DNA of 64,000 bases, taken from positions 2,994 through 66,993 of the forward strand of contig JAYFPQ010000065.1 in NCBI GenBank assembly GCA_034927595.1. Direction: 5' to 3'. This DNA comes from Christensenella sp. (lineage in GTDB: Bacteria; Bacillota; Clostridia; Christensenellales; CAG-138). Position numbers and translations under genes: made by a program. The notes beneath the pieces are model-generated. The model was not told the DNA's origin. It saw nothing but the letters and a program-made list of their open reading frames with translations, and made no database searches. Of this stretch, positions 18,792 through 54,280 are shown in pieces. Position 1 is the first letter of the stretch. Each line of letters starts with the position of its first letter.

Positions 18792-18845
18792 ATGAACAAC
18801 AATATGACGGGGAGCGCAATTTACGCCTTGTGGGAACAAAGATGA
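18792..18845 (+). promoter_or_regulatory. 17-codon upstream ORF (MNNNMTGSAIYALWEQR) that duplicates the start of the downstream gene
   Basis: GAGGAG RBS lies 8 nt upstream. Its TGA stop overlaps the ATG of the XRE gene as ATGA. 12 of 17 residues match the first 17 residues of the downstream protein. Confidence 0.4.
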
Positions 18846-19426
18846 ATAACTACGTAACGGGGAGCGCAATACGCGCGCTGCGTGAGCAAAAGGGATATAC
18901 GCAAAAACAGCTCGCCGAACGCCTGCTGGTCAGCGACAAAGCGGTGTCCAAGTGGGAGTCTGGTCGCGGACTTCCGGACATCAGCCTGATTGAGCCGCTG
19001 GCAAAGACGCTTGGCGTTTCGGTGGCGGAGTTGCTCTCCGGCGAATATGTTCAAAACCGCAATCGCCACGGAAATATGCTCAAGAGCCGGTTTTACGTTT
19101 GCCCGGTCTGCGGAAACGCGATGTTCGCCACGGGGGAAGGTGCATTCAGTTGCTGCGGCGTGTCGCTGCCGCCGCTCGAACCGGAAGAGCCGGACGAGGC
19201 GCACGAAATTCGAACGGAGCGCATCGAGGACGAGCACTATGTTCGCTTGGACCACCCGATGGACAAGACGCACTACATTTCGTTTCTCGCGTTTGTGACG
19301 GCGGATCGTGTGCAATTTGTCAAGCTCTACCCGGAGCAGAATGCGGAAGCGCGGTTTCACCTATCCGGTCGCGGGGTACTCTACGCGCTCTGCAACCGCC
19401 ACGGGTTATTTAAAAAGAAAATTTGA
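18842..19426 (+). CDS. XRE-family HTH fused to a desulfoferrodoxin (2Fe-SOR)-like domain
   Basis: N-terminal HTH_3 (IRALREQKGYTQKQLAERLLVSDKAVSKWESG). C-terminal CxxC...CC centre-I pattern (YVCPVCGN...SCCG). SOR centre-II ligand pattern: AHEI, DHPMDKTHYI, CNRHG. Confidence 0.8.
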   Translation: MNNYVTGSAIRALREQKGYTQKQLAERLLVSDKAVSKWESGRGLPDISLIEPLAKTLGVSVAELLSGEYVQNRNRHGNMLKSRFYVCPVCGNAMFATGEGAFSCCGVSLPPLEPEEPDEAHEIRTERIEDEHYVRLDHPMDKTHYISFLAFVTADRVQFVKLYPEQNAEARFHLSGRGVLYALCNRHGLFKKKI

Positions 19427-19438
19427 GGAACAAGGACA

Positions 19439-20110
19439 ATGAAGATACTGGTGATCAACGGTTCGCCAAAGGGCGAACAAAGCGTTACGCTGAGCATCAC
19501 CCGCGCATTCATCGAAGGCATGGGCGAAACATACGAAACCATCGATACCATGCGGGTCAACGTGAAACCCTGCCTCGGCTGTTACGCCTGCTGGCGGATC
19601 ACACCGGGCAAATGCGTTCAGCAGGACGACATGGCGGGCATTCTGGATCGAATTCTCGAAAGCGAACTAGTGATTTGGTCGACGCCGCTTTACTGCTACA
19701 GCGTGCCTTCCAATGTCAAGGTGCTCTACGACCGGCTGATTCCGCTGGGCACAATGGAGCAGCGCGTCGACGAAGAGGGCGGCACCTACCACCCCGGACG
19801 GCAGAACATTCAAACGCAGATCATGCTGATCTCCGGCTGCGGTTTTCCGAATCGCGAGAACAACTATGAAGCGATGGACTTTCAGTTTAACCGGATGTTC
19901 AGCCCGACCTGCCCGCGCATCTACTGCGTCGAGTCCCCGCTGCTGGACATTCCGGAAGCAAAGCCTGTAGCGGATCAGTACCTCGCGTATGCGCGCCGCG
20001 CGGGAGCGGAGTTCAAAGCGACGGGTACGATCAGCGCGGAAACACAGGCGCTGCTCGATGCGCCGATGATCCCGCCGGACGTCTACCGCGCGCAGATCAA
20101 CGCACGGTAA
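19439..20110 (+). CDS. flavodoxin-fold NAD(P)H-dependent FMN reductase / iron-sulfur flavoprotein-like
   Basis: Motifs MKILVINGSPKG, KPCLGCYACW and VIWSTPLYCYSVPS. Confidence 0.8.
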   Translation: MKILVINGSPKGEQSVTLSITRAFIEGMGETYETIDTMRVNVKPCLGCYACWRITPGKCVQQDDMAGILDRILESELVIWSTPLYCYSVPSNVKVLYDRLIPLGTMEQRVDEEGGTYHPGRQNIQTQIMLISGCGFPNRENNYEAMDFQFNRMFSPTCPRIYCVESPLLDIPEAKPVADQYLAYARRAGAEFKATGTISAETQALLDAPMIPPDVYRAQINAR

Positions 20111-20152
20111 AATCCATTGAAATCCGCTATACTTCTGCGTAGAATATGATAG

Positions 20153-20190
20153 AATGGATTCGGCGATCAAGTATCGCCGAATCCATTTTT
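20153..20190 (+). terminator. strong hairpin terminator/attenuator between the two flavoprotein genes
   Basis: Perfect 15-bp stem AATGGATTCGGCGAT-CAAGT-ATCGCCGAATCCATT followed by TTT. The AAGGAG RBS of the next gene comes immediately after. Confidence 0.55.
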
Positions 20191-20204
20191 AAGGAGCAGC
20201 GCAG

Positions 20205-20645
20205 ATGAAATCGGTTGTATTATATTACACATTCGGCGGTTCAACGAAGCAGGAAGCGGAGAAGATTGGCGCCGAACAGGAAGCACCCGTCTACCGCGTA
20301 AAGGAAAAGCGCAACCGCAGCACATTTGGCTCGTTTCTGCCCGGCTGCTATCAGGCGTTGAAGCGCAAGCGGTCCAAGATCCTTCCGCTGGAAGTCGATT
20401 TGTCCGCGTTTGATCGCATTTACATCGGCGGGCCGGTTTGGGCGGCATGCCCCGCGCCCGCGGTGAATTCCATCATCGACCTGCTGCCCGCGGGCAAGGA
20501 GGTTGAGGTGTTTCTCTGCGCGGGCGGCAACGATCCGCGCCCGAGCGACGAGGTGACCAAACAGATGATTGAGGCCAAGGGCTGCAAGGTAACGAAGATT
20601 ACTACAATCGCCACCGGAAAGCCACCGGCCAAACTGAAAGATTAG
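20205..20645 (+). CDS. flavodoxin-like protein
   Basis: AAGGAG RBS. Motifs MKSVVLYYTFGGSTKQEAEKI and IYIGGPVWAACPAP, typical of short flavodoxin-family proteins. Confidence 0.7.
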   Translation: MKSVVLYYTFGGSTKQEAEKIGAEQEAPVYRVKEKRNRSTFGSFLPGCYQALKRKRSKILPLEVDLSAFDRIYIGGPVWAACPAPAVNSIIDLLPAGKEVEVFLCAGGNDPRPSDEVTKQMIEAKGCKVTKITTIATGKPPAKLKD

Positions 20646-20711: not shown

Positions 20712-21542
20712 CTAGTTCTTCTTCACCGCATTGAGAATTCCGCCGACAATGGCGAACAAGCCGAACAATACGATGTTGACGCAGACGACGCTTGCCCCGC
20801 TCGGCGTTTCGTACACGAAGCTGATCACCATGCCGAGGAAGAACCCGACAATGGCGACGATGGCGGAGAGAATCGTTACGCTCAGATACCGCTTGCCAAT
20901 TCGCATTGCCGTGAGTACTGGAAAGATCACGAGGCTGGAGATCAGCAGCGCGCCCATCATTCGCATGCCGAGCACGACGGTGATAGAGGAGAGCGTTGCG
21001 AGCGCGGCGTTGTACGCGCGCGTGGGAATTCCCGTTGCGCGGGCAAACGACTCGTCAAATGTAACGGCGAACAGGCGCGGATAGAACAGCACAAACAGCA
21101 CGAGCACCACTGCGCTGAGCACGGCGGAGAGAACCGCGTCCCCCTGCGAAAGGGAGAGGATGCTGCCGAACATGTAGTTGTACACGTCCGTATTCATGCC
21201 CGTCGTCATGGAAACGACCATCACACCGATGGCGAGCGAACCCGCGGAGAGCATCGCGATGGCCGCGTCGCCCTTGATGCGCGTGCTCTCGCTCATGCGC
21301 AGCAGCAGAAATGATGCCGCGATACAGACCGGAATTGCGAGGTAGAGCGGGGCAATGTTTGCCGCCGCCGCAATGGCAAGCGCGCCGAAGCCAACGTGGG
21401 ACAGCCCGTCGCCAATCATCGAGAACCGCTTGAGCACGAGGCTGACGCCCAGCAGCGACGCGCAGAGCGCGACGAGCAGACCGACGATCAGCGCGCGGAC
21501 GAGGAACGGATAGGACAGCATTTCGGTCAACGTACTGATCAT
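20712..21542 (-). CDS. znuB: metal (zinc-type) ABC transporter permease
   Basis: ABC-3 family features: FLVRALIVGLLVAL and MIGDGLSHVGFGALA. The protein is polytopic. Its start overlaps the stop of the ATPase gene. Confidence 0.85.
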   Translation of the reverse strand: MISTLTEMLSYPFLVRALIVGLLVALCASLLGVSLVLKRFSMIGDGLSHVGFGALAIAAAANIAPLYLAIPVCIAASFLLLRMSESTRIKGDAAIAMLSAGSLAIGVMVVSMTTGMNTDVYNYMFGSILSLSQGDAVLSAVLSAVVLVLFVLFYPRLFAVTFDESFARATGIPTRAYNAALATLSSITVVLGMRMMGALLISSLVIFPVLTAMRIGKRYLSVTILSAIVAIVGFFLGMVISFVYETPSGASVVCVNIVLFGLFAIVGGILNAVKKN

Positions 21543-22246
21543 TTTGCTTCACCGCCTAAGAATCGTTTGCCGATTTCGCTCTTGCGATAATCCGACGCGG
21601 AGCCGAAGAAGAGCTGTTTGTTGTCCAAATGCAGAATGTTCTTCGCTTCGTGCGCGGCCGCATGCGGGTCGTGGGAAACCATGATGACCGTAACCCCATG
21701 ATCGCGGTTCACGTGCTGAATCAGCCGGTACATCTCCGCCGTCGCCAGCGGGTCCAACCCGGATATCGGCTCGTCGAGGATAATCAGCTTCTGCGTAGCC
21801 GCCAGCGCGCGGGCAAGCAGCGCGCGCTGCTGCTGGCCGCCGGAGAGGTCGCGAAAGCTCGCGTTCTTGAGTTCGGTCAGGCCGACGCAGATGAGCTGCG
21901 CCTGCGCGATCTCCCGCTGCTTTTTCGTATAGAACGGGCGAAGGCCGAGCGAATTGAGCGTTCCGGAGAGCACGACCTCCTGCACGCTGGCGGGAAAGTC
22001 GCGCTGGCTGTCCTTCTGCTGCGGCAGATAGCCGATTTCGCGCGCGCGGAGCCCTTCCTCAAACGAGATGGACCCGCTGGACGGCGCTTTCAGCCCCAGC
22101 AGGCCCTTGACCAGCGTGCTCTTGCCGGAGCCGTTTTCGCCGACCACGCAGAGGTAGTCTCCGCGCTCCACGGCAAACTGGAGGTCGCGAACAACCTCCT
22201 TGCCGTCGTAGCGGAACGATGCGTTCTGAACGTTGATGAATGCCAT
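21539..22246 (-). CDS. znuC: metal ABC transporter ATP-binding protein
   Basis: Walker A GENGSGKST, signature LSGGQQQR, Walker B LIILDEP. Confidence 0.85.
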   Translation of the reverse strand: MAFINVQNASFRYDGKEVVRDLQFAVERGDYLCVVGENGSGKSTLVKGLLGLKAPSSGSISFEEGLRAREIGYLPQQKDSQRDFPASVQEVVLSGTLNSLGLRPFYTKKQREIAQAQLICVGLTELKNASFRDLSGGQQQRALLARALAATQKLIILDEPISGLDPLATAEMYRLIQHVNRDHGVTVIMVSHDPHAAAHEAKNILHLDNKQLFFGSASDYRKSEIGKRFLGGEAK

Positions 22247-22296
22247 GAAACCGGATTGCCTCCTTGGGTTGCGCGATTTATGCGAACCCGTTCGAT

Positions 22297-23262
22297 TTAG
22301 CCGAGCGCCTTTTGCAGCGCGAGCACGTTGTTTTGCATGAGCGAAAGATACGTGGCCCCACTCTCAAACTCCGCCTTGGTCACGTTGTGGCAGGTGTGGA
22401 AGAGCAGCTTCTGTGCGCCGGTTTCTTCGCAGACGGTGTCCGCCATCTTTTGATTCGACATTTCAATATAGAACACGTAGGGGATTTGTTCCGTCCGTAC
22501 ATGGTCAATCAGCGCGGCGAGCGTTGCGGCGGAAGGTTCGGTATCCGTCGAACAGCCGGGGAAGGCGGCGTAATACTGGAGGCCAAACTCCTCAACGAAG
22601 TAGCGAACGGGAAACCGATCCGCAAAGACCATAATCTTGCGAGCAGAACCGTTGACCACGTCCCGGAACGACTGGTCGAGCGCTTCGAGTTGCTTGACGT
22701 AGGCGTCCGAATTGGCCTGATAGGTCGCCGCGTTGGCGGGATCGATCGCGGCCAGCTCGCTCGTCATCGCCTTGACAATCGAAATGGCGTTGACTGGCGC
22801 GGTCCAAACGTGTTCGTCCCACTCGGCTTCCGCGGCAGCTCCCGCGGGCTGCGGCTGCTCCTGTTCGGGCTGCATGCCGTCGGTCAGTTCCTCCTCATAG
22901 AGTGTGACATAATCCATCATCTTGAACGTGTGGACGCTCTTGTCGAGGCCGGAAAGCACGTTTTCCACCCACGTGTCGTTCTCTCCGCCAACGTAGAGAA
23001 ACAGGTCTGCGTTCTGCACGCGAATGATGTCCTGACTCGTCGGGTCGAAGGAGTGCACCTCCTCGCCGGGCTGCAGCAGCATGGTTACGCTGGCGTTTGT
23101 GCCCGCCGTGATCTGGCGCGCAAAGTCGTAGCTGGGGAACACGGTGGAAACAATCGAGATTCCGTCGGTTTTTGCTGCGGTTGGTTGCGGCACGCAGGCG
23201 GCAAGGGACGACAGTAAGAGTAGTAAGAAGATTGCGATTGCAATGATTTTGTGTTTGCGCAT
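22297..23262 (-). CDS. znuA: metal ABC transporter substrate-binding lipoprotein (cluster A-I, ZnuA/AdcA-like)
   Basis: GGAGG RBS. Lipobox LSSLAAC. An acidic Glu/Gln-rich loop (PEQEQPQPAGAAAEAEWDEH). Confidence 0.85.
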   Translation of the reverse strand: MRKHKIIAIAIFLLLLLSSLAACVPQPTAAKTDGISIVSTVFPSYDFARQITAGTNASVTMLLQPGEEVHSFDPTSQDIIRVQNADLFLYVGGENDTWVENVLSGLDKSVHTFKMMDYVTLYEEELTDGMQPEQEQPQPAGAAAEAEWDEHVWTAPVNAISIVKAMTSELAAIDPANAATYQANSDAYVKQLEALDQSFRDVVNGSARKIMVFADRFPVRYFVEEFGLQYYAAFPGCSTDTEPSAATLAALIDHVRTEQIPYVFYIEMSNQKMADTVCEETGAQKLLFHTCHNVTKAEFESGATYLSLMQNNVLALQKALG

Positions 23263-23876: not shown

Positions 23877-24188
23877 TTAGCGGAACTTAACCGCCGTTCC
23901 GTATACGATGACTTCCGCCGCGCCGGACATGACCGCGCTGGAAGCATAGCGAATGTTGACGATGGCGTCCGCGCCCATCTCGGTTGCTTCGGCAACCATG
24001 CGCTTGGTCGCCAGCGCGCGCGCGTCGTTCATCATCTCGTTGTACGCCTTCAACTCGCCGCCAACCAGCGTCTTAAACGCCTGCGTAATGTCTTTTCCAA
24101 TGTTCTTCGTCTGGATGGTGCTGCCCTTTACAAGGCCGAGCGTCTCCAGCTCCTTGCCGGACACATAATCAGTATTGACTAAGATCAT
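23877..24188 (-). CDS. ybjQ: YbjQ/UPF0145 family protein
   Basis: Family-typical sequence: MILVNTDYVSGKELETLGLV...GGELKAYNEM...ARALATKRMVAEA...GADAIVNIRY. The ATG at 24188 is preferred over the GTG at 24197. Confidence 0.8.
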   Translation of the reverse strand: MILVNTDYVSGKELETLGLVKGSTIQTKNIGKDITQAFKTLVGGELKAYNEMMNDARALATKRMVAEATEMGADAIVNIRYASSAVMSGAAEVIVYGTAVKFR

Positions 24189-24396
24189 CTTCTTCACCGC
24201 TCCTTATTTCTTTGATTCGTTGAACGAGCACAAACACGCTCGCGCAAAGCAATCCGAGGGGAATCAATCCGACCAACACCTTGACCCAAACCGGCATTGG
24301 CAGCGAGAGCAATACCAGCAGATACGCCAGCATGTATGCCGAAAGCAAAACCGTGATCACAATCGGCGCAATCATCTTCTTTTGATGCGTATTCAT
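24169..24396 (-). CDS. small two-TM membrane protein
   Basis: 75 aa (MNTHQKKMIAPIVITVLLSAYML...) with two hydrophobic helices. Its 3' end overlaps the ybjQ start by 20 nt. Confidence 0.5.
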   Translation of the reverse strand: MNTHQKKMIAPIVITVLLSAYMLAYLLVLLSLPMPVWVKVLVGLIPLGLLCASVFVLVQRIKEIRSGEEDDLSQY

Positions 24397-24820
24397 CGAA
24401 ACACCTTCTACTCTTTGGAATGCAAACTTTACGGTGGAAACAGGCAATGTTTTAAACGATGCTACTTACTTACGAAAGAGGAATCAGTTCCCGATACTCC
24501 ATATTCCGAGTGTATCAGAAAAAACCTCGCGTGAAAAGATTATGGAGTACAGAACTTATTTCATTGCATCATGTTCAATGTAAGAGCATAAGCGAAGAGA
24601 TGAACGAGCTTCCGAAAACGGATAGACGGTTGAACCGTTAGTTTTTCTTGCATTTCGCTCGACATGGCGTTGGATTCTTATTAAAATATAAACGATAGAC
24701 AATTTCTTCAGTTTTTTGCGATTTCTTGCGATTCGACAGTGAAGCAACAGCGAAACAACAATCGAATACGCCGGTGCGGGCGGGAGCGAACGATGCGCCA
24801 AGCCGGTTGGAGGGAAAAAG

Positions 24821-27800
24821 ATGGACGATCGAGTGGGTATCTCCGGTGGATTGGACGCGCATTATGCGGAGTTTGCCAGGAGCATTGGCGTATCCGTAAA
24901 GCAATTGCGCGCCTGGACGGCGAAGACGAAATTCGACACGGAGTTTCTCGCGCAGTTTGGCCACCGCGTGTCCTGCACGGCGGTTGCGGCGTTTTGCGAG
25001 CCGGTGATCAAGCGCTTTGGCGAGCTGCCGACCGAAGGGCTGCTGCCGTATACCTACGAGGCGCTCTCCGTGGGCTTATACCCGTATTCCGGCGCGCCGC
25101 GCTCCACAAAGGGGCAAAAGATCGCGCAGAAGTTCTATCTTTCGGTGCTTTCGCGCCTGCTCGACGCGGAGCGGGACCAAGCGTTTGACCCGCTGCTGGA
25201 CTATCTGCCCGTTACGGAAGCGGAGCTGGAAAAAAGCGCCGTCCGCGCGCAATGCATTGTGTTTTCGGACGTGATGAAGAAGAGCAACTACCGTGAACTC
25301 CTTCGCATCGGCAAGGAGATTATGCGATTTGACCCCGCCGGGCATACCTTTGGCGTTCGGCATGTTGCCGTGCACATGGCGCGTCAGGCCGCCGCCGCAG
25401 GGCTTCCAGCGGACGTTGCGCTGGTGGCAGCCGCCGCGCTGAGCCACGACATCGGTAAGTTCGGCTGCCGCGGCGAGGACATGGGGCGCATTCCGTATCT
25501 GCACTATTATTACACCTGGAAGTGGCTCGAAGAGCGCGCCATGCCGGACATTGCGCATATCGCGGCGAACCACTCCACCTGGGATTTGGAGTTTGAAAAC
25601 CTGCCAATCGAGTCCCTGCTTTTAATCTACGCGGACTTTCGCGTTCGTGCGGAGGCGGGGGAGGACGGCAAGGACAAGACCATCGTCGGCACGCTGCAGG
25701 AGGCGCGGGATCGCATCTTCGTCAAGCTCGCGGACATGACGCCGGAAAAGAAGCTACGGTACGAAACGGTCTATCGCAAGCTGGACGATTTTGAGCGCTA
25801 TCTGGAGACGCACGGCGTCGGCACAAACGTCTTTGCCAGTTCGTTTGGCCTGCCGGAGAGCCGCGACGCGGCACTGCTGACTCAGGGCGAGGTCATTCGC
25901 GCGCTGACGAACCATGCGTTCGACAACAACATTCACCTGATGCATACGATTTCGGTCAGCGATTCGTTCGAGGCGCTGCTGGAGCAGGCGAGGGACGAAA
26001 AGAACCTGAACCGGATTCGCACCTACCTGATGCTGTTTGAAGAATACAGCACCTATATGACGCGCACGCATAAGCTGCTAACGTTGCGGTTTCTCTACGA
26101 ACTGCTCATGCACCACGACGGGGACGTTCGCCGCCACGCGGGGCGCATTATGGGCAGCATTCTCGCCAACTCCGGCCCGCGTTATCGAAAGGAACTGCCG
26201 CGCGGGGCGGGGTCGCTCGCGATTGCTCCGGCGCTGCACGCGGTGCTCAGCGAGAGCACGACGCTTTGGGACGACTACATTGAACTCTGCCTGCATCCGG
26301 ACTATAAGATTTCGCAAAAGCACGCCTCGCGCATCAGCAATTCACTCAAAACCATCTCCGGTAGCCTGTTTGCAAATTGCTCGCCCGAGGAGCGGCGCGG
26401 CTACTGGGAAAAGCTCTGCCGCCGGATTCTTTCGAGCGGCAGCGAGGAGTTGTTTGTGCTCATGGACACCCTGCCGCACATTCCGCAGAGCGTGATGACG
26501 CGCCTGGAAATCGAGCGCATGCTGCCGATTCTCGCGGGCGCGGCGGGTTCCATCGATGCGCGGATTCGCATCTGCGCCCTTCGCGCCATCCGCGCGGTTG
26601 TGGACGGGGACACGACGCTGCTCAAGCGCGGCGTGGAGGCGGTGCACCTTTCGTCGGACGCGGAGTTTGCCTCCGTCTGGATGCTCAACCGCCTGCGTCG
26701 GGAAGCAGGACTGTCGCCGCTGCCCGAACCGTCGTTTCCGGTTGCGGAAATCTATCTGGCAAACCTCAAGAGCAGCATTCCCTGGACAATGAAGCTCGCG
26801 CACATCGACCGGCTCTGCGAGTCCGTGCTGGAAAACGCGGACGAGGCGTTTCATATTGCGATGCATTTGAGCAACCTGCTCTCGGTCAGCGAGCACCTTC
26901 CGGTGCGCGAGCGTGCGGGGCAGGCGCTGGTGGAGATTTCCTCCGTGCTCTCGGTCGACCAGAAGAACGAAATCATGATCGACCTGCTGCGCGAGCTCGA
27001 GACCGGACAAAACGAAATCTCCGGCTACATTCCGCCCTACCTGGGGCGGCTGGTCTGCAACGTGCCGGAAAAGGAGATGGACGAGGCAATCGACTACCTG
27101 CAGGGGCTGATTCGCGCGTCCAATACGCGCGCGGCCCGCGCGGCGCTCGTTACGCTCTCCGTGATTCTAACGATCTATACCGCCGAAAACGGCGCGCGGA
27201 CGGACGCGGTGACCGAGCGCATCTTCGGCCTGCTGCTCACGGGCGTTGCGCATTTTGACGACGACATTCGCCTGACTGCGCTGGAGGCGATCTGCCGCAA
27301 CTACTTTGGAAACGACGATTGCCCGCTGCCCGCGCGGCGCGCCTGCCTCGTTCGATTCGGCAAAAAGCTCTTAACGCTGCTTGGCGAGCGGCGGGACGGC
27401 ATGCTCGCGTTCTTCAACGAAGCGGCGATGCTCAACCATCTCTACCGCTTCATCACGCTCTGCGAAACGAGCGGCGGCTTCACCTTTGAACCGCTCAAGC
27501 CGGTTGCGTTCTTTCCCGGCACGTTCGACCCGTTTTCCGCCGGGCACAAGCGCATTGTCGAGGAAATCGTCGTGCGCGGGTTTGAGGTGTACCTCTCAGT
27601 GGACGAGTTCAGCTGGAGCAAGCGCACGCTGGCAAAGCTGCTGCGGCGCGAAATCGTCAGCATGTCTGCCGCGTTTTTGCCGGACGTGTACCTCTTTCCA
27701 GACGAGATACCGGTCAACCTCGCCGTCGTGGACGACCTCAAGAAGCTCGGTTCGCTGTTTCGCGACCGCGAAATCTATCTCGTCGCCGGAAGCGACGTCA

Positions 27801-29482
27801 TTCTCAACGCGAGCGCCTATCGCCAGACCGGCCCCGGCACGGCGGCAACCTGGAACCACATTCTCTTTTTGCGCGTGGACACGGCGCACCAAAACGACCC
27901 GCGCCGCGCGGAGGACATCCTGCGCGGGAAGGTTGTTTCGCTGACGAGTCCGGCCTATTACGAGAGCGCGAGCAGCACGCAGATTCGCGACTACATCGAC
28001 AAGGATATGGACATCGGCATGCTGGTTGACCCCGTCGTGCAGGACTATATCTACGCGCGCGGGCTCTATCTAAGGATGCCGCAGTACAAGCGCGAGCTCA
28101 ACGAAATTGAGAAGAACCGCTGCGAGGTGCGCGAAACCGGCGAGGAATACAACGGCGTCTATCGCGACGATGCGGGCGGCGTGCTCGCGCACGTGAATTC
28201 CCGCAGCGTGAGCGTAACCGACCTGTACGACGTGCTCGGCGAGATGCGCCGCGCGGCGGAGACCGTGCGCCGGCTCGCTTCCGGACGGATCATCTGGATC
28301 ACGGAGACGAGCGGGGAAGGCGAGCCGCTTCGCGCGCTGCTCTGCGACCTGCTTGCGCGCTCGCTGATTCGCGAGCACACCTACGCGCTCTACCGCTGCG
28401 GAAGCGACGCGGAGCGCGAAATTGCGCAGCAACTCGGCTTTTTGCCCGTCTCCGGGCAGGAGTCGCTGCTGTATGCGGATATGCGCGCGCCGATCGTGCT
28501 GCTGGAGGACACGCTCCAGCGCATCAAGGAGCCGTTCGACACGGACGAGGCCGTCCGCGAGGCGGTGATGTCCACGCGGCCCGCGCTGCGCCGCTCGATC
28601 TGCGCCATGTTCCCCGGAACGCTGCTGTTGAGCTTCGACATGGAGGCGATCAACGCAGGGCTGATTGAGAAGGTTCGCGCGTACAACGGCGTTTCCAACG
28701 TGCCGCCGACGGAAAAGACGCTCGGTCGGGCCATGTGCGTGCCCTACGGCAAGGTGCTGGCCGAAACGATTGTGCCAAACACCGTGACCAAGGCGCTCCA
28801 CGCGGATAAGGCGTTCCATGCCAACGAGAGCGGATTTGACATTACGGAATCCCCCGGTTACTCGCCGCTGGTCAACCAGATCAAGACGCTCAAGTCCTTC
28901 CGCCGTCCCGTGCTGTTGATTGACGATCTGCTGCACAACGGCTATCGCCTTGAAAAGCTCGATCCGTTGTTCCGGCAGGAGGGCGTTGAGATTGAGCGGA
29001 TCATCGTTGGCATTTTGTCCGGTCGCGGGCTGGATTTGATGCGCGAGCAGAAGCGAAATGTGGACTGTGAATACTTCATTCCAAACATGCTCTACTGGTT
29101 CACGGAGAGCCTGATATACCCGTTTATCGGCGGGGACAGCGTCGAGGGCGCGATTGTTGAGCGCGATTTTCCGCCGAGCATCAACCTGATTTTGCCGTAC
29201 CAGTACCCCAAATATCTGCACGGCGCGCCGCCGTCCACCGTAAGGGAATATTCGCGCGTCGCGTTGCGAAACACGCTGACGATCATGACCGTTCTGGAGG
29301 AACGCTACCTGAAGCTCCAGGGGACCGGACTCACGCTGCGCCGACTTGGTGAGGCGTTACTGCGCCCGCGCCTGCCGGATAAGGGAACGCACATGAAATA
29401 CGACCTCAACACCGTCGCTTCGGCGTATATCAAGGACGATATCCGCCAGATGCGTCGAATCTCCCATGCGGAGGATGTGTAA
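24821..29482 (+). CDS. 1553-aa multidomain protein: HD phosphohydrolase, helical (HEAT/ARM-like) repeats, NadD/HIGH-type nucleotidyltransferase, unassigned middle domain, PRTase-like C-terminus
   Basis: GGAGGG RBS. HD motif H181...SHDIGK (nt 25442-25459). Nucleotidyltransferase motifs GTFDPFSAGH (nt 27518-27547) and SSTQIR (nt 27971-27988). PRPP-loop-like RRPVLLIDDLLHNGYR (nt 28901-28948). A single uninterrupted ORF. Confidence 0.85.
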   Translation: MDDRVGISGGLDAHYAEFARSIGVSVKQLRAWTAKTKFDTEFLAQFGHRVSCTAVAAFCEPVIKRFGELPTEGLLPYTYEALSVGLYPYSGAPRSTKGQKIAQKFYLSVLSRLLDAERDQAFDPLLDYLPVTEAELEKSAVRAQCIVFSDVMKKSNYRELLRIGKEIMRFDPAGHTFGVRHVAVHMARQAAAAGLPADVALVAAAALSHDIGKFGCRGEDMGRIPYLHYYYTWKWLEERAMPDIAHIAANHSTWDLEFENLPIESLLLIYADFRVRAEAGEDGKDKTIVGTLQEARDRIFVKLADMTPEKKLRYETVYRKLDDFERYLETHGVGTNVFASSFGLPESRDAALLTQGEVIRALTNHAFDNNIHLMHTISVSDSFEALLEQARDEKNLNRIRTYLMLFEEYSTYMTRTHKLLTLRFLYELLMHHDGDVRRHAGRIMGSILANSGPRYRKELPRGAGSLAIAPALHAVLSESTTLWDDYIELCLHPDYKISQKHASRISNSLKTISGSLFANCSPEERRGYWEKLCRRILSSGSEELFVLMDTLPHIPQSVMTRLEIERMLPILAGAAGSIDARIRICALRAIRAVVDGDTTLLKRGVEAVHLSSDAEFASVWMLNRLRREAGLSPLPEPSFPVAEIYLANLKSSIPWTMKLAHIDRLCESVLENADEAFHIAMHLSNLLSVSEHLPVRERAGQALVEISSVLSVDQKNEIMIDLLRELETGQNEISGYIPPYLGRLVCNVPEKEMDEAIDYLQGLIRASNTRAARAALVTLSVILTIYTAENGARTDAVTERIFGLLLTGVAHFDDDIRLTALEAICRNYFGNDDCPLPARRACLVRFGKKLLTLLGERRDGMLAFFNEAAMLNHLYRFITLCETSGGFTFEPLKPVAFFPGTFDPFSAGHKRIVEEIVVRGFEVYLSVDEFSWSKRTLAKLLRREIVSMSAAFLPDVYLFPDEIPVNLAVVDDLKKLGSLFRDREIYLVAGSDVILNASAYRQTGPGTAATWNHILFLRVDTAHQNDPRRAEDILRGKVVSLTSPAYYESASSTQIRDYIDKDMDIGMLVDPVVQDYIYARGLYLRMPQYKRELNEIEKNRCEVRETGEEYNGVYRDDAGGVLAHVNSRSVSVTDLYDVLGEMRRAAETVRRLASGRIIWITETSGEGEPLRALLCDLLARSLIREHTYALYRCGSDAEREIAQQLGFLPVSGQESLLYADMRAPIVLLEDTLQRIKEPFDTDEAVREAVMSTRPALRRSICAMFPGTLLLSFDMEAINAGLIEKVRAYNGVSNVPPTEKTLGRAMCVPYGKVLAETIVPNTVTKALHADKAFHANESGFDITESPGYSPLVNQIKTLKSFRRPVLLIDDLLHNGYRLEKLDPLFRQEGVEIERIIVGILSGRGLDLMREQKRNVDCEYFIPNMLYWFTESLIYPFIGGDSVEGAIVERDFPPSINLILPYQYPKYLHGAPPSTVREYSRVALRNTLTIMTVLEERYLKLQGTGLTLRRLGEALLRPRLPDKGTHMKYDLNTVASAYIKDDIRQMRRISHAEDV

Positions 29483-29486
29483 GCCG

Positions 29487-30731
29487 ATGAAGTATTACCG
29501 ATACCGCGATGTCTGTCTCTGCCCCTGCGGCGGAGCGCTGCCGGACGGCGCAATTCCGGCGGATGAGCCGTTTGCGCCACTTGTGCTGCTCGTTTGGCGC
29601 GATCCGCTCATAAACCGCGGCTTGTTCGCGATTCGTGATCTTGCGGAGCTGGACGAGCCGGAAGGAATCCGCTTGCTGCTACCCGTAAAACCGGCGGAGC
29701 AGACGGAGGCGCTCGCACGGTTCGTTGCAGAGCATGGCGCCTGCGTAGCAAACACTGCGTTCTCGCGCTGGTTTCGTGTGCTGGAGGCGTACCGCTGGAC
29801 GATTGGCGTCAAAAAGAAGGTCAATCTCGTCGGCTTGGGCAACGTCGGCGGCACGACGGCAACGGCGCTGAAGCTGCTCGGCAGCGACCTTTCCGAAATC
29901 GGGCTGTACGATACGGACTTTAACAAGCGTCTGCGCTACGAGGCCGAGCTGAATCAGGTATTGCCCATCCAGGACGGCGAACCCCTGCCGAATATCGTGC
30001 TGGAAGACAACGATCATCTATTTCGCTGTGACGCAGTGCTCTTTACCGCCGCGCAGTTCGTTCCGGACGTGGGCGAGGAAAGCGGAAAAGATGTGCGCAT
30101 GATGCAGTATCAGGCAAACCGCGAACTGCTGCGCGACTACGCGCGGCAAGCGCGCGAGGCGGATTTTCTCGGCCTGTTTGCGCAGATCTCCGACCCCGTC
30201 GATCACTTAAGCCGCGCGGTGTTTCTCATGAGCAATCAAGATGAGCGCGGGGAGTTCGACTGGAACGGACTGTTGCCAGAGCAGGTACGCGGGTTCGGAC
30301 TTGGCGTCATGCACGCGCGGGCAATCTTCTGCGCACGGCAGGAGGGGGTGCACGACGAACGCATCTGCGCGTTTGGGCCGCATGGCAAGGGCCTCGTCGT
30401 AGCAAACGCGCCGGACGATGGGTATACCGACGATCTATCCCGCTTTCTCACCAAAAGGGCGGAGGAAGCGAATCTCGAAATCCGCAAGATCGGCTACAAG
30501 CCGTATATCGCGCCGGGGATATCCTCTGCGGCGGTCTCGGTGCTCCGTGCGTTGCGCGGGCAGTGGCACGACGCGGCGGTGCCGATGGGCGGCGCTTACT
30601 TTGGCTGCCGCGCGCGCTTTGGTCGAAACGGGCCGGAGATGCTCCGCCAGCCGCTGCACGAGCAGCTGGTCGCGCGGATCGAGGAGAGCTACGATATGCT
30701 GCGGGAGTTTGACGTAAGATGGGCAGACTGA
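29487..30731 (+). CDS. LDH/MDH-superfamily dehydrogenase-like protein with a roughly 115-aa N-terminal extension
   Basis: GGAGGA RBS overlaps the end of the upstream gene. Rossmann motif KVNLVGLGNVGGTTATALKLLG. LDH-like blocks FGLGVMHARAIF and AFGPHGKGLVV. Starts 5 nt after the upstream stop. Confidence 0.75.
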   Translation: MKYYRYRDVCLCPCGGALPDGAIPADEPFAPLVLLVWRDPLINRGLFAIRDLAELDEPEGIRLLLPVKPAEQTEALARFVAEHGACVANTAFSRWFRVLEAYRWTIGVKKKVNLVGLGNVGGTTATALKLLGSDLSEIGLYDTDFNKRLRYEAELNQVLPIQDGEPLPNIVLEDNDHLFRCDAVLFTAAQFVPDVGEESGKDVRMMQYQANRELLRDYARQAREADFLGLFAQISDPVDHLSRAVFLMSNQDERGEFDWNGLLPEQVRGFGLGVMHARAIFCARQEGVHDERICAFGPHGKGLVVANAPDDGYTDDLSRFLTKRAEEANLEIRKIGYKPYIAPGISSAAVSVLRALRGQWHDAAVPMGGAYFGCRARFGRNGPEMLRQPLHEQLVARIEESYDMLREFDVRWAD

Positions 30732-31804
30732 TCGTCGTCGAAAATCCGAATAATGACCGCTTGAATTCCGTACTCGCGTTTGCGCTGGACGGCGTTGCGC
30801 ATGAGCGCGTGCCCGTATCGGAGGCGGTGTCCCGCCTGCGGGGCGAGCGGGTGCTCTTTGCGTTGAGTTTGAGTGAGCACGGATTGGACGCGGAGCTCTG
30901 CGCGCTGATTGCCGCGCTCAGACAGAACCCGACCGCGATGGAGGGCTCTATTGGTGCAATGCTTGTGGACGGCGCGGGCGAACTGTATACCAAACAAATG
31001 GCGGACATGCTCGCGTTCGCGGCAAACGGCGCGGGCTGCCTCTTTCCGGGCAAGCCGCTCGTGGAGGCGACCGCCTCGCTCGACAACTGGCGCGTGCAGG
31101 CGTCGCGACGGAACGTGGAACCCGCGGAGGCGTATACACAGTCCGCGCGGGAGCTCGTGCAGCGGCTTGCGTCCTGCGCGCCAAAACAGACGGATCGTCC
31201 GAAGGTACTGCTGCTGCACGCCTCCGACCGATCCACCTCCAACACGCTCCAAATCGGCTCGGCCATTGCCGCGCGGCTCGAGAACGACTGCGACATTCGC
31301 GAAATCTCGCTGCAAAACGGCGCAATTTACGACTGCCGGGGTTGCTCGTATACCACCTGCGCGCACTTTGCGCGGCAGAACAGCTGCTTCTACGGCGGCG
31401 TGATCACAAACGATGTGTATCCCGCCATCAACGAGTGCGACGCGCTGTTGCTGCTCTGCCCAAACTACAACGACAGCGTGAGCGCAAACATTCTCGCGTT
31501 CATCAACCGCCTGACCAGCGTGCTGGTCTATAATTCGCTCTACGACAAGTACCTCTATTCCATCATCGTCTCCGGCTACAGCGGGGGGGATCTGATTGCG
31601 CAGCAGGTGCTCGGCGCGCTTTGCCTGAACAAGACCTTTATGCTGCCGCCGCGGTTTGCCTTTCTGCAAACAGCGAATAACCCAGGCGAGGCGATGGAGG
31701 CAGAGGGGATTCTAGAGCGAATCGACGCATTTGCAGAGCAGATGCGAAACACCATGTGCACGCCGTCCGGCGGAACCGGGCTTGCGAAACAACATGTCAC
31801 ATGA
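30719..31804 (+). CDS. tandem flavodoxin-fold protein; the C-terminal half is NAD(P)H-FMN reductase / iron-sulfur flavoprotein-like
   Basis: The start overlaps the upstream gene by 13 nt. The C-terminal half has KVLLLHASDRSTSNT, CRGCSYTTCAHFARQNSC and ALLLLCPNYNDSVSA. Confidence 0.7.
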   Translation: MGRLIVVENPNNDRLNSVLAFALDGVAHERVPVSEAVSRLRGERVLFALSLSEHGLDAELCALIAALRQNPTAMEGSIGAMLVDGAGELYTKQMADMLAFAANGAGCLFPGKPLVEATASLDNWRVQASRRNVEPAEAYTQSARELVQRLASCAPKQTDRPKVLLLHASDRSTSNTLQIGSAIAARLENDCDIREISLQNGAIYDCRGCSYTTCAHFARQNSCFYGGVITNDVYPAINECDALLLLCPNYNDSVSANILAFINRLTSVLVYNSLYDKYLYSIIVSGYSGGDLIAQQVLGALCLNKTFMLPPRFAFLQTANNPGEAMEAEGILERIDAFAEQMRNTMCTPSGGTGLAKQHVT

Positions 31805-31992: not shown

Positions 31993-32020
31993 GCATGGAG
32001 CTCTGTTCCATGCGTTTTTT
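31993..32020 (+). terminator. intrinsic terminator/attenuator
   Basis: GCATGGA-GCTCTGT-TCCATGC followed by GTTTTTT. It lies 75 nt upstream of the methyltransferase start. Confidence 0.55.
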
Positions 32021-34593: not shown

Positions 34594-34803
34594 TATGCCT
34601 TGTGTTTCCAATTGAGATAGGGAGAAGGGATCGTGTGGGAAAACAGGAAAATAACCGAGGAAGTCGATTTTATCCAATTTATTAAGAATATGTATGATGC
34701 TTGCAAATTAGACTACAAAAACCTATAGTATATTTGTACGATAAATACAGTTTATCAGATGGAACAAAGCCGGACACGACGCCATGAACAGAAGGGAATC
34801 GGC

Positions 34804-35808
34804 ATGGACAGCGAATGGCTGAATCATTTGTACGAGCTTGTGCTGCAGCAATTGCGCGACGGAATTGTTCTTTCCGACGCGGAAGGGAATATGGTCTTTG
34901 TCAACGATGCGGCGGAGCAGATTCGCAGTGTGCGGCGTGAAGATCTCCTCGGCAAGAGCATGGTGGACTGCCACCGACCGGAGTCCAGAGAAAAGGTGCT
35001 TCGCGCACTCGACCATTTAAAAACACACGAGGGAAGCTCGTTTAGCCGAATGGTGACCGACGTAAAGAACGACAAGATCTACGAAAATGTTTACGCGCCG
35101 GTCTTTGAGCCGGGGCACGAACTGCAAGGCATTGCCGTTATCTCACGGGACATCACCGCGCAGCGCAAGAGTGAGGAGAGCAAGGCGGCCTATCAGCGGG
35201 CGCAGCAGGTGGCGCACGATCTACTACGCGAGCAGTACCACAACCTCGTGCTCACGAGCATGGAGATGCTCTGTAACCTTCTGGAGGCGAGGGATCATTA
35301 CACGGACGGGCACTCGAAGCGCGTCTGCGAGATCGCCGTTAAGCTCTACGAAGAGAAGTATGGGGTAACCGAGGTCTTGCTGGACGTGCAATGGGCGGCA
35401 AAGCTGCACGATATCGGCAAAATCTGCATACCGGACAGCATTGTGCAAAAGCCCGGCAAGCTGACCAGCGAGGAATACGAAGCGATTAAGCAGCATAGCC
35501 GACTCGCCGGGGAAATCATCCGCCCGCTCGATCCGGGCAGCCGCATCTGGCCGATCATTCGGCACCATCATGAGCGCTTTGACGGAAAAGGGTATCCGGA
35601 CGGGTTGAAGGAGGAAGAGATTCCAGACGGATCGCGCGTGATCGCGATTGCGGACGCGTTTGACGCGATGCGCTCCAGCCGTCCCTACCGAGAGACGATG
35701 CGATATGAACAATGCGTAGAGGAAATTCAAAACAACGCCGGAAAACAGTTTGATCCGAAATGGGTGGATATTTTTCTCGAACTGGCAAAGACCGGAAGCA
35801 TCGATTAA
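34804..35808 (+). CDS. PAS-domain HD-GYP phosphodiesterase (c-di-GMP type)
   Basis: PAS-like N-terminus. HD-GYP motifs: HYTDGHSKRV, KLHDIGK, HHERFDGKGYPDGL. Start placed at MDSEWLN with an AAGGGA RBS; an alternative ATG lies at 34759. Confidence 0.85.
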   Translation: MDSEWLNHLYELVLQQLRDGIVLSDAEGNMVFVNDAAEQIRSVRREDLLGKSMVDCHRPESREKVLRALDHLKTHEGSSFSRMVTDVKNDKIYENVYAPVFEPGHELQGIAVISRDITAQRKSEESKAAYQRAQQVAHDLLREQYHNLVLTSMEMLCNLLEARDHYTDGHSKRVCEIAVKLYEEKYGVTEVLLDVQWAAKLHDIGKICIPDSIVQKPGKLTSEEYEAIKQHSRLAGEIIRPLDPGSRIWPIIRHHHERFDGKGYPDGLKEEEIPDGSRVIAIADAFDAMRSSRPYRETMRYEQCVEEIQNNAGKQFDPKWVDIFLELAKTGSID

Positions 35809-52036: not shown

Positions 52037-54013
52037 CTAATCAACATAAGCTTTTGGAACTGCATATACATAAGTAAAACCGTTAATCTCAAATGAGCGG
52101 ATGATATCGTAATTGCGATATAAATATAACATTGTGTATGGAAAATCTAACGATTGCTCATAGGGATTAATGAATATTGGAGCATCGTTCTTCTGAATGA
52201 TTGTAGCATAGAAGTCCCATGCGGTTTGAGATAACCCTATTGCGGGCGCATCACAGACTCGAATACTGTTTTCCCATCCGAGTTGCGAGTATATATATGC
52301 GGTACCATTTCCGAGCGCATTTGTGTTTGGGGGCACAGTCTGACGGATTTCACTCAATACGGCGTTCTCTTTACGAACCTGCTCAGAAATAGACTGAATT
52401 TGTGTTGGCTGAAACTGGATCCCTAAAACGACTGCCATGATGCAAAGCAAGAACAGAATGGAACCTGAGAATACTTTTAGAGAACGAGCTAGAATTGTCA
52501 TGACACTATTTTGGGGATTATAAACGCACCAGTCAGTCGCCCACTGCGCAAGCACACCGATTAGTAAACAGGTAACATAGAATACGATATAGAGACCTCC
52601 GAATCCAGCTCTGTTGACAAAGAAAATCAAGGAACCCAGGCCCAGAATTGCCAAACCAGCACATGTTATTTGGGCATTGGTGGAGCCACCGCCACGAAGC
52701 AATCGACTTTTCAAAAAGCATATCCCGACAAAGAATATAAAAATAAGTGTTATATGCAGCCATAGACTGTTTCCTGATTGAAGCGGAATTTGTAAACCTC
52801 TTACAAAATCAACACTCCGCCCTAAACTCAATATCGGTACAACAAAAAGACGAAAAGAGAGTGGCTCGCCTCCATTGATTAGATTCCAAAGAGTGGTCAT
52901 CCCCCAAGCGGCGAAAAATGCTGCAATGCATGACATTCCATACACAAAAGTTCTAATTAGGAGTGAAGGTAGACGAATGCCTTCTCTGTTTAAAGTCGAA
53001 AGAATCAGCAGACAAGAAGTTGCTACAGCACAGACTAAGCCTGTTTCTAAGTTCCACTGAATAGCAAAGGCTGCTAAAACGAACAGAAATATTTGGTAAG
53101 AAATTTTCTGCAACTTCTTTTTGTATACGCCCCAAGTAAAAATAGCGCTAAAGAGAGCAATAAACAAAAATCGATGAGGATATCCTTGATAAGAAACATA
53201 CCCGATATAGTTTCCTGCACACATACAAACGGAAGCTATTACGGTCATTATCTTGATCCATTGGTTTTTGATCAGTTTGTCAGCGCAGTAGCAATAACAA
53301 AGAAAGCATACGCCGCATAATACAGCCATTAACTCTGGGAAGTGGGCCAAACCAAAGATTTTCAATAGAGCGGACAAAACAATTGCATAATGGCCATATG
53401 TACCGTAATTCAAGGCACTGTAAGGTTCATTATAATAAGCATTGTATATGCTATTGAAATAAGCATCTTGATTATAGATTGTGAAAAAAGAGCTTAGATT
53501 TGATGGAAACCAACAAAAGAGAGTAACGAGAAGCGCTGCAAGAATTGAAACCAACCAAAATGCTTTGCTGCTACTCGTTTTTGCATCAAGAAACTGAAAC
53601 TTGTGCTGTAAAAAGTAGAGTATTGATAATATACAAGTTACGATCAAGATGAGATGTGAATATCGAAGATTCTGCCAACAAAACACCGTCGGGGCATTTT
53701 CCATTTCCAGCGTATGTACATACATATTGCATAAAATGAATGTCCATCCAGCCAGAAGAATCACCAATAATATTGTTCTATTCCGAGCGCTCAAGTCAGT
53801 TAAGAGCATTTGATCATTGCGCTTTGGAAGCACAAGCGTTAGTAATGAAAATGCCGTTAATACAAACATTGCTCCTGCTAAACTAAATAAGAACAGGAGC
53901 ACATCGCTAGACTCCTGGGTTGCATGACCCAAGGCATAGTCAATAAGAAAGCAAAAACTTGAGAATGCCATAATTAGTGTAACGAGATATGAAGCCTTAG
54001 AGCGTGTTTGCAT
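52037..54013 (-). CDS. large polytopic membrane protein (more than 12 TM), possibly a GT-C-like glycosyltransferase/polymerase, with a C-terminal soluble domain
   Basis: Long ORF in AT-richer DNA with a continuous hydrophobic helix pattern. I recognise no diagnostic motif, so the function is a guess. Start is at 54013 or 54031. Confidence 0.55.
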   Translation of the reverse strand: MQTRSKASYLVTLIMAFSSFCFLIDYALGHATQESSDVLLFLFSLAGAMFVLTAFSLLTLVLPKRNDQMLLTDLSARNRTILLVILLAGWTFILCNMYVHTLEMENAPTVFCWQNLRYSHLILIVTCILSILYFLQHKFQFLDAKTSSSKAFWLVSILAALLVTLFCWFPSNLSSFFTIYNQDAYFNSIYNAYYNEPYSALNYGTYGHYAIVLSALLKIFGLAHFPELMAVLCGVCFLCYCYCADKLIKNQWIKIMTVIASVCMCAGNYIGYVSYQGYPHRFLFIALFSAIFTWGVYKKKLQKISYQIFLFVLAAFAIQWNLETGLVCAVATSCLLILSTLNREGIRLPSLLIRTFVYGMSCIAAFFAAWGMTTLWNLINGGEPLSFRLFVVPILSLGRSVDFVRGLQIPLQSGNSLWLHITLIFIFFVGICFLKSRLLRGGGSTNAQITCAGLAILGLGSLIFFVNRAGFGGLYIVFYVTCLLIGVLAQWATDWCVYNPQNSVMTILARSLKVFSGSILFLLCIMAVVLGIQFQPTQIQSISEQVRKENAVLSEIRQTVPPNTNALGNGTAYIYSQLGWENSIRVCDAPAIGLSQTAWDFYATIIQKNDAPIFINPYEQSLDFPYTMLYLYRNYDIIRSFEINGFTYVYAVPKAYVD

Positions 54014-54280
54014 AGAAGTACTTCCCCACATGGTTTTATAAAAATTGTACAGCTTAGTACTTATATATAATGTTAAGTTTAATCGACAAAAGCTATTATA
54101 AACTACCAAAAACAGAAAAGCTACCATCCCAATGAATAAGAATCACACAGTGCAGTATTTTCATGTGTATACAGACTGGATCATTCAAATCCTTCTTCCC
54201 TCCGTTGCTTTCCCATCCCCATTGTGTTAAACTCACGGGAACACAACAGAGATTATCTTTCGGATTGGAGCCCAATACCC

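Follow-up and report, generated by a model that had tools for sequence, protein, structure and literature searches.

Genes A, B and C, which lie side by side in a stretch of 64,000 nucleotides from Christensenella sp. (the window; assembly GCA_034927595.1, contig JAYFPQ010000065.1, positions 2,994 to 66,993 of the forward strand), form one tightly coupled operon with its own conserved promoter and a terminator-like hairpin. The operon encodes a multidomain protein of 1553 amino acids (aa), protein A, together with a protein of lactate/malate dehydrogenase (LDH/MDH) fold (B) and an FMN_red-like protein (C), and the three genes are co-inherited across Clostridia. Each domain of A comes from a known superfamily, and their combination is found in no characterized protein or pathway. 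Judged from conserved motifs and predicted structures, the operon may be an assembly-and-editing line for a pyrophosphate-linked dinucleotide, in which B and C would carry out redox steps, a reading to which we give a probability of roughly 40%. This model was drawn up because of the domain folds and motifs of A, the operonic coupling and co-inheritance of the three genes, and the precedent of NadD-type transferases that work with HD hydrolases.

Operon structure and inheritance

The features of the transcription unit are as follows.

24659..24687, + strand: sigma-70-type promoter (TCGACA, 17-nt spacer, TAAAAT; 10/12 in a consensus scan)
24695..24820, + strand: 5′ untranslated region of about 125 nt, with a CCGG...CCGG hairpin at 24771-24806 abutting the ribosome-binding site
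24821..29482, + strand: gene A, an uninterrupted 4.66-kb open reading frame (ORF) for a multidomain protein of 1553 aa
29487..30731, + strand: gene B, for an LDH/MDH-fold Rossmann protein of 414 aa with an N-terminal extension of about 105 aa
30719..31804, + strand: gene C, for a two-domain protein of 361 aa with an FMN_red-like C-terminal half
31993..32013, + strand: terminator-like hairpin 3′ of gene C, with a 9-bp stem, 5 GC pairs and the T-run tail GTTTTTTGTT (consensus scan)

A preliminary description of the window, made from its letters alone, had reported a 4.66-kb ORF with a good ribosome-binding site, a second gene starting 5 nt after its stop and a third overlapping the second by 13 nt, and had read this layout as tight translational coupling. 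The long frame is present at 24821-29482, with GGAGGG at 24809-24814, 7 bases before the ATG. Gene A ends with TAA at 29480-29482, and the start of gene B, which a mechanical ORF list places at 29466, agrees with its homologues at the ATG at 29487; this start is preceded by GGAGGA and leaves a spacer of 4 nt, so that the distance first given was essentially right. The overlap of 13 nt between the start of gene C (30719) and the end of gene B (30731) is exact. Coupling of this kind is also seen well beyond the window, as the A-B and B-C spacings fall between -14 and +5 nt in 44 of 48 loci, and B and then C follow A directly in 64 of the 67 loci that have at least 2.7 kb downstream of A.

The promoter at 24659-24687 and the hairpin at 31993-32013 delimit the unit, which thus consists of promoter, 125-nt leader, A, B, C and terminator. 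When the upstream regions of 10 Christensenellaceae loci are aligned, the hexamer blocks CTCGACA and TTAAAATA are invariant, and the leader retains ACCGG and CCGG-ACGGAGG as well as a conserved A-rich block. The leader of gene A could be regulatory. It belongs to no Rfam family, whether the window is searched at the gathering threshold or positions 24100-24900 at E ≤ 5, and Rfam searches of seven other loci returned unrelated elements only (a T-box beside asnB, a lysine riboswitch and a tRNA). A riboswitch or known leader upstream of A was rejected on these grounds. Neither of the two regulatory elements so found controls the cassette: the T-box leader lies directly upstream of asnB beside the Anaerotignum cassette (L071, 17087-17327, - strand), and the lysine riboswitch lies elsewhere in its locus (L016, 1939-2121). 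TnrA/GlnR boxes are present upstream of A in 0 of 61 loci, and in the same 61 loci there is no convincing enrichment of Rex, CodY, CRP/Fnr-like, Fur or PurBox motifs.

The sequence of protein A is that of MEA4939276.1, annotated as hypothetical in a Christensenella sp. metagenome-assembled genome. A word-indexed search yields more than 3400 full-length homologues, the best 120 of which are 1502-1637 aa long and match with at least 95% query coverage and 48-99% identity. When one genome per GTDB species is scanned, relatives of A turn up in at least 586 species-level genomes; among the matches listed all carriers come from the class Clostridia, including Christensenellaceae, Oscillospiraceae (Faecousia, Avoscillospira, Vescimonas and Oscillibacter), Anaerotignum, Tyzzerella and Sedimentibacter. 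In public metagenomes, one 90%-identity cluster of A, from Faecousia, holds 4809 member sequences.

The identity of A to the window copy is 74-99% within Christensenellaceae, about 50% in Oscillospiraceae, and 33-37% in Lachnospirales, Tissierellales and Peptostreptococcales. The identities of A, B and C to their window copies correlate across loci (r = 0.92-0.95), and even in Anaerotignum, Sedimentibacter and Acetoanaerobium, where identity has dropped to 33-37%, the cassette is complete. A check of co-conservation across Clostridia had been proposed with the preliminary description, and the persistence of the A-B-C order together with the number of genomes that carry A bears out the association it had noticed. 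In three loci (L037, L079 and L059), the genes found in place of B and C are unrelated neighbors: an AMP-binding enzyme, an acyltransferase, an iron-containing alcohol dehydrogenase, a glutamate dehydrogenase (GDH) and an alanine symporter.

No phage match was found for the cassette, nor any true plasmid match, and PADLOC defence models gave no match. The sole "plasmid" match is the complete cassette, at 33.5% identity, on the 2.6-Mb replicon of the cultured Acetoanaerobium noterae DSL2 (L083, NZ_CP154629.1, "plasmid pTPELB2"). This replicon measures 2.63 Mb and carries housekeeping genes; its entry in the plasmid collection is therefore no evidence of mobility, and it is probably a chromosome or chromid. 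Taken together, co-inheritance, the fall of identity with taxonomic distance, and the lack of phage, plasmid and PADLOC matches indicate that the module is chromosomal, is passed on vertically and is confined to Clostridia. Two complete cassettes occur in a single 3.67-Mb Christensenellaceae chromosome (OY762290.1; L005 and L008), at about 8.6 kb and about 3.58 Mb, each with an A protein about 80% identical to that of the window.

Domains of protein A

Protein A is divided into the following regions, all encoded within gene A.

25328..25645, + strand: HD phosphohydrolase domain (aa ~170-275)
25718..27490, + strand: HEAT/ARM-like helical repeat region (aa ~300-890, ~590 residues)
27503..28075, + strand: NadD-fold nucleotidyltransferase domain (aa 895-1085)
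28103..28525, + strand: GNAT-like fold domain (aa ~1095-1235)
28547..29230, + strand: type I phosphoribosyltransferase (PRTase)-like domain (aa ~1243-1470)
29231..29479, + strand: C-terminal helical bundle with conserved residues (aa 1471-1553; assigned by DSSP on the AlphaFold2 model)

The motifs from which a domain order had first been read are all present, namely SHDIGK (aa 208-213), GTFDPFSAGH (900-909), SSTQIR (1051-1056) and VLLIDDLLHNG (1364-1374). The placement of the nucleotidyltransferase in the HIGH class holds on several grounds. Both of its signature motifs are invariant, within the set FFPGTFDPFSxGH, DEFSWSK, GSDV..NAS.Y and SST[QR]IR. In an AlphaFold2 model of aa 881-1553 (predicted local distance difference test score, pLDDT, 84; predicted template modelling score, pTM, 0.81), the domain matches NadD structures with a Foldseek E value of 1e-7 and a template modelling (TM) score of 0.65-0.77 to the target. 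The profile of the domain aligns end to end with the Plasmodium nicotinic acid mononucleotide (NaMN) adenylyltransferase 5llt (E 2e-9), and an aromatic residue, Y1000, stands at the position of the base-stacking Trp of that enzyme class. The likeness to NadD therefore comprises the Rossmann-like fold, a (T/H)xGH-type motif (SxGH in A), an ISSTxxR-type motif (SST[QR]IR in A), a conserved Lys at the PPHK position (SWSK in A) and the aromatic base-stacking residue. The A domain differs from NadD in that it is embedded at aa 895-1085 of a protein of 1553 residues.

The C-terminal part of A was modelled separately (aa 1085-1553; pLDDT 90.6, pTM 0.91). Its PRTase-like domain, described at first as a PRTase-like C-terminus, matches XPRT, UPRT, APRT and OPRT with Foldseek E values of 5e-5 to 1e-3 and a TM score to the target of about 0.5, and the type I fold comes with a conserved pair of acidic residues. 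Five polar motifs are conserved in this domain (CVP[YF]GK, VTKxLHxDK, RPVxLxDDxxHxGxR, SGxGxD and YPFxGGD). D1368, H1372, G1374 and R1376 are invariant, whereas D1369 is Asp in 21 of 22 homologues and Glu in one. The pair D1368-D1369, which corresponds to the acidic pair of the phosphoribosyl pyrophosphate (PRPP) loop, is invariant among the closer homologues and follows a hydrophobic strand ahead of G1374 and R1376. Where type I PRTases have the PRPP motif (four hydrophobic residues, two acidic ones, any two, then (S/T)-G-x-(S/T)), the A family reads VLL[IV]DDLLHxGxR, in which the hydrophobic stretch, both acidic positions and the Gly are retained and invariant His and Arg occupy the Ser/Thr positions. 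Type I PRTases (XPRT, APRT, UPRT and OPRT) share with A the core fold and this acidic pair after a hydrophobic strand, but their identity to A is only about 12-16%, and A has a GNAT-like domain in place of the hood. The Pfam Pribosyltran family matches the Acetoanaerobium orthologue below its cut-off (E 7e-4, 19.4 bits against 26.3).

Between the nucleotidyltransferase and the PRTase-like domain lies a region that the preliminary description had left as an unassigned domain of about 190 aa. Its model matches agmatine and polyamine N-acetyltransferases, KKT23, and the acetyl-CoA-binding C-terminal domain of Mycobacterium tuberculosis ICL2 (Foldseek E 3e-4 to 2e-3), so that a GNAT-like fold can be assigned to it, albeit one without the conserved acetyl-CoA loop. 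The GNAT-like and PRTase-like domains constitute a module that gives only 371 matches at E ≤ 1e-3 among 1.84 billion representative proteins. All complete matches are proteins of about 1500-1680 aa that carry the module at the C-terminus, and the module is exclusive to the A family. Split-gene variants, with an HD-HEAT half and a nucleotidyltransferase-GNAT-PRTase half, were considered and rejected; the shorter representatives begin in the middle of a domain and are therefore fragments.

At the N-terminal end, the HD motif noticed in the sequence belongs to a genuine HD domain, which scores above the curated Pfam cut-off (E 1e-5; 26.2 bits against 22). The ligand set H175, H209-D210, H228, H251 and D272 is invariant in 21 diverse homologues, and this H..HD..H..H..D pattern is, by sequence, that of two-metal HD enzymes. 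The sole structural relative found by sequence is the HD-GYP structure 4mcw, to which the match is weak, and the N-terminal 300 aa as a whole find nothing better than E 0.37 in the PDB. The YqeK family model is absent among the NCBIfam matches of A at E ≤ 1. A separate PAS-HD_5 protein of HD-GYP type is encoded in the window at 34759-35808, 3 kb downstream of the operon, and its HD family differs from that of A.

The helical repeats that had been seen after the HD domain are of HEAT type: Pfam HEAT matches occur in 9 of 22 homologues (best E 8e-7), and aa 685-843 of A align by profile with CAND2, a HEAT protein (E 0.013). We infer that this region serves as a scaffold for the translationally coupled redox partners. 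No Pfam family scores above its cut-off in the N-terminal ~170 aa of A, in its GNAT-like and PRTase-like domains, anywhere in B, or in the N-terminal half of C.

Putative redox partners B and C

Protein B had been called an LDH/MDH-fold dehydrogenase-like protein, and profile comparisons support the fold. The family profile aligns with L-LDH structures over the whole LDH length (E 2e-9), and the B family conserves D142 as well as a Rossmann motif, GLGDVGG. When B is aligned to LDH by HMMER, MAFFT and hhalign, its R204, R278 and H299 fall at the positions of R109, R171 and H195. B therefore shares with L-lactate and malate dehydrogenases the Rossmann GxGxxG motif, the Asp that binds the adenosine ribose, and the counterparts of these three catalytic residues. 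In every B member, however, N140 of LDH is replaced by Asp (D236) and D168 by Met (M275), which leaves a catalytic set that is incomplete and unusual for the fold; because of these replacements, B is no canonical LDH or MDH. Further differences are an 11-aa insertion after the NPVD helix and the N-terminal extension. B reaches no Pfam or NCBIfam cut-off, with Ldh_1_N at 16.9 bits against 27 in the window copy, while the Acetoanaerobium copy scores 27.0 bits against the same cut-off of 27. On this comparison, B appears to be a divergent protein of LDH fold, and any reaction that it catalyses would differ from that of classical LDH or MDH.

Protein C had been described as a double flavodoxin-fold protein with a Cys cluster. 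The FMN_red domain of its C-terminal half is clear (aa 161-314; E 2e-16, 60.4 bits against a cut-off of 24), and the motifs LHAS..TSNT and PNYND are conserved. A second fold of this kind is not recognized by sequence: neither Pfam nor the PDB offers a match for the N-terminal ~155 aa, which also do not resemble the C-terminal half, and an internal duplication was rejected at an hhalign probability of 0.3%. The Cys cluster is borne out by four invariant cysteines, C206, C209, C214 and C223 (nucleotides 31334-31387). In iron-sulfur flavoproteins (Isf), a compact four-Cys motif binds a [4Fe-4S] cluster. C resembles Isf and the FMN_red family in its FMN_red domain and in a compact four-Cys cluster about 40 residues past the first strand, but its spacing, CX2CX4CX8C, differs from that of Isf, and it has the additional N-terminal domain of 155 aa. 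By these motifs, C is predicted to bind flavin mononucleotide (FMN) and probably a [4Fe-4S] cluster.

Proposed function, alternatives and gene neighborhood

The preliminary description had already suggested that the set may make, edit or degrade a nucleotide cofactor or dinucleotide, an idea compatible with the domain make-up of A. In the proposed assembly line, the C-terminal type I PRTase would join PRPP and a base into a 5′-mononucleotide, with the GNAT-like domain acting as a cap at the "hood" position. The NadD-fold domain would then adenylylate the mononucleotide with ATP to give a pyrophosphate-linked dinucleotide, following the logic of NAD salvage. The two-metal HD domain could hydrolyse the product or wrong products, for turnover or for proofreading in the manner of YqeK, and the HEAT-like solenoid would hold the domains together and dock B and C. 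The partners, B with its NAD-binding LDH-like fold and C with FMN and the probable [4Fe-4S] cluster, would carry out redox steps on the base or on the dinucleotide. Each catalytic step, the direction of flux and the physical complex are what we infer from these data.

The closest precedent for such a combination is the NadD-YqeK pair or fusion of Firmicutes and mycoplasmas, which likewise joins a NadD-type transferase and a two-metal HD hydrolase. Where YqeK is fused to NadD or encoded in a cluster with it, its HD domain proofreads the products of NadD (PMC9426524), and a mycoplasma NadD-HD protein hydrolyses cyclic di-AMP (PMC12879401); the HD domains of NadD-YqeK systems hydrolyse erroneous dinucleotides, diadenosine tetraphosphate or cyclic di-AMP (PMC9426524; PMC12879401). 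A differs in that its domain order is reversed, about 600 residues of HEAT-like repeats lie between the two domains, its HD domain matches no YqeK model, and it adds the GNAT-like and PRTase domains as well as two redox partners. The passage from mononucleotide to dinucleotide is also the logic of two-step NAD salvage, in which a PRTase is followed by an adenylyltransferase, but the PRTases of the NAD pathway are of type II, whereas that of A is of type I.

Several results weigh against the assembly-line model. Where HxGH has its first His, A has an invariant Ser, and the NCBIfam NadD equivalogs, whose cut-offs are 112-187 bits, are far from reached (best NF000840, 31.7 bits against 150, E 1e-7), so that the domain, as modelled, has the NadD fold yet is no NadD orthologue by this score test. 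The phosphate loop of the PRTase-like domain reads HxGxR instead of (S/T)Gx(S/T). Pfam Pribosyltran gives no match in the A protein of the window, and the profile of the GNAT-PRTase module has no match by sequence in the PDB, PRTases included. The GNAT-like domain shows no conserved (Q/R)xxGx(G/A) acetyl-CoA loop, and its beta4-alpha3 loop varies in sequence and length among 22 homologues. The His-Asp pair of LDH is incomplete in B, where the Asp is missing, so that B may have a binding role instead of an enzymatic one. The complex of A, B and C is suggested by gene coupling only, and the model does not account for the asnB, type III glutamine synthetase and gdhA genes that occur near some cassettes.

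A bolder version of the model, in which the operon makes, edits and redox-tailors an undescribed dinucleotide (a cofactor or a signal) in abundant gut Clostridia (Faecousia, Christensenellaceae and Oscillospiraceae) through a private PRTase and adenylyltransferase, strikes us as somewhat unlikely; the asnB, glnN and gdhA neighbors hint that such a compound may serve nitrogen assimilation. If the assembly-line reading is true, carriers synthesize or recycle a nucleotide compound through a route outside any pathway map; models of gut microbial metabolism would then be affected, and a new cofactor or signal could come to light. The hosts are hundreds of gut and sludge Clostridia, whose copies still bear database names that are "hypothetical" or wrongly NadD, and cultured hosts include Acetoanaerobium noterae DSL2, Anaerotignum sp. 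MB30-C6 and Faecousia intestinalis CLA-AA-H192. Searches of the literature by architecture, annotation strings and accession numbers returned nothing on the A family, and neither there nor in the databases searched was a characterized orthologue found, in keeping with the first impression that no known pathway has this architecture.

Besides B and C there is no consistently linked gene, and the next commonest neighbor cluster is found in 11 of about 80 loci. A bona fide asnB lies beside the cassette in 11 loci, in four arrangements and in distant lineages (L015, L017, L028, L054, L057, L060, L064, L071, L073, L078 and L080), and a type III glutamine synthetase gene (glnN) in eight (L016, L017, L054, L064, L071, L073, L078 and L080). 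Rarer neighbors are an NADP-GDH gene (gdhA) in two loci, one of them L059, and an ANTAR regulator in one (L001), and a glutamine-dependent NAD+ synthase gene (NadE; L065) lies two genes upstream in one locus. None of asnB, glnN, gdhA, NadE or the ANTAR gene is adjacent to the cassette in the window. The recurrence of asnB and glnN is far above chance proximity, yet it concerns only about 15% of loci and can be taken as a weak but recurrent lead towards nitrogen metabolism. Other flanking genes are housekeeping genes, for example those of ATP synthase and pyruvate phosphate dikinase.

These neighbors are among the reasons to consider A as a bifunctional synthetase and hydrolase of a signalling nucleotide, or as a nucleotidylyl transferase that writes and erases, on the pattern of RelA/SpoT or GlnD. 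Sensing of acyl-CoA and of PRPP or purine nucleotides would then fall to the GNAT-like and PRTase-like domains, B and C would be either NAD(H) and redox sensors or targets, and the module would report carbon, nitrogen or redox status. Synthetic and hydrolytic nucleotide domains and long interaction repeats on one polypeptide would suit this role, as would a GNAT-like domain without the conserved catalytic loop and a B protein that lacks two LDH catalytic residues. RelA/SpoT and GlnD resemble A in logic only, in that a nucleotide-transferring domain, an HD hydrolase and putative ligand-binding domains share one chain; A has a HIGH-type fold where those proteins have synthetase and pol-beta folds, and no homology is claimed. 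However, the invariant polar residues retained at the PRTase-like site are numerous and of the kind expected in an active site, the nitrogen-related genes are present in a minority of loci, and the upstream regions show no enrichment of TnrA/GlnR, Rex or CodY boxes. To our knowledge, HIGH-type transferases of the NadD and PPAT class act on small-molecule phosphates and not on proteins, which also counts against a signalling role. We regard it as unlikely. If the cassette is regulatory, Firmicutes, which are without GlnD and GlnE, would have in it a metabolic sensor of a new type.

The best family and fold matches of the transferase are to NadD and NaMN adenylyltransferase, and PGAP and IMG annotation names homologues of A "nicotinate-nicotinamide nucleotide adenylyltransferase". 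On the surface, this would make A a fused housekeeping adenylyltransferase of NaMN or nicotinamide mononucleotide in ordinary NAD biosynthesis or salvage, and B and C unrelated redox enzymes that happen to be co-transcribed, a view to which the NAD+ synthase gene near one cassette also lends itself. Multifunctional fusions are known in NAD salvage, such as NadR and NadM-Nudix. We know of no NAD enzyme with the architecture or the partners of A, however, and a score of about 30 bits leaves the transferase well short of the curated NadD cut-offs. The PRTases that act on nicotinate, nicotinamide and quinolinate belong to type II, and the type I fold of the A domain does not fit among them. A family seen only in the class Clostridia, with at least one genome that holds two copies, and with B and C co-inherited and translationally coupled in nearly all loci, is also poorly described as a housekeeping enzyme with chance neighbors, and the NAD explanation is improbable.

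An equally improbable explanation is the repair or salvage of damaged or unusual pyridine or flavin nucleotides, in which HD would cleave the damaged dinucleotide, B and C would reduce or re-oxidize its ring, and the PRTase and NadD-like domains would rebuild the cofactor. It calls on the same domain set as the assembly line, has suitable redox partners in an NAD-binding fold and an FMN/Fe-S protein, and can appeal to the HD proofreading of NadD products (PMC9426524), but no known repair families, such as NAD(P)HX epimerase or dehydratase, are seen in the neighborhoods. A role in anti-phage defence or inter-genomic conflict, through depletion or modification of nucleotides, as a large multidomain protein with nucleotide-acting domains and the presence of two copies in one genome might suggest, is hardly credible given the lack of PADLOC, phage or true plasmid matches, the housekeeping flanks (ATP synthase, pyruvate phosphate dikinase, asnB and glnN) and an identity that follows taxonomy.

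Elsewhere in the window, a run of small redox genes lies upstream of the operon at 18830-20645. It begins with an HTH_3 domain fused to a desulfoferrodoxin-like C-terminus (18830-19426), continues with an FMN_red/Flavodoxin_2 protein (19439-20110) and a weak Flavodoxin_4 protein (20205-20645), and is followed by a ZnuABC-type transporter on the opposite strand (20712-23262, -). Downstream, at 52037-54127 on the - strand, an ORF of 695 aa without a Pfam match has a GC content of 39.7% against a window mean of about 57%, a composition that suggests it may have been horizontally acquired.

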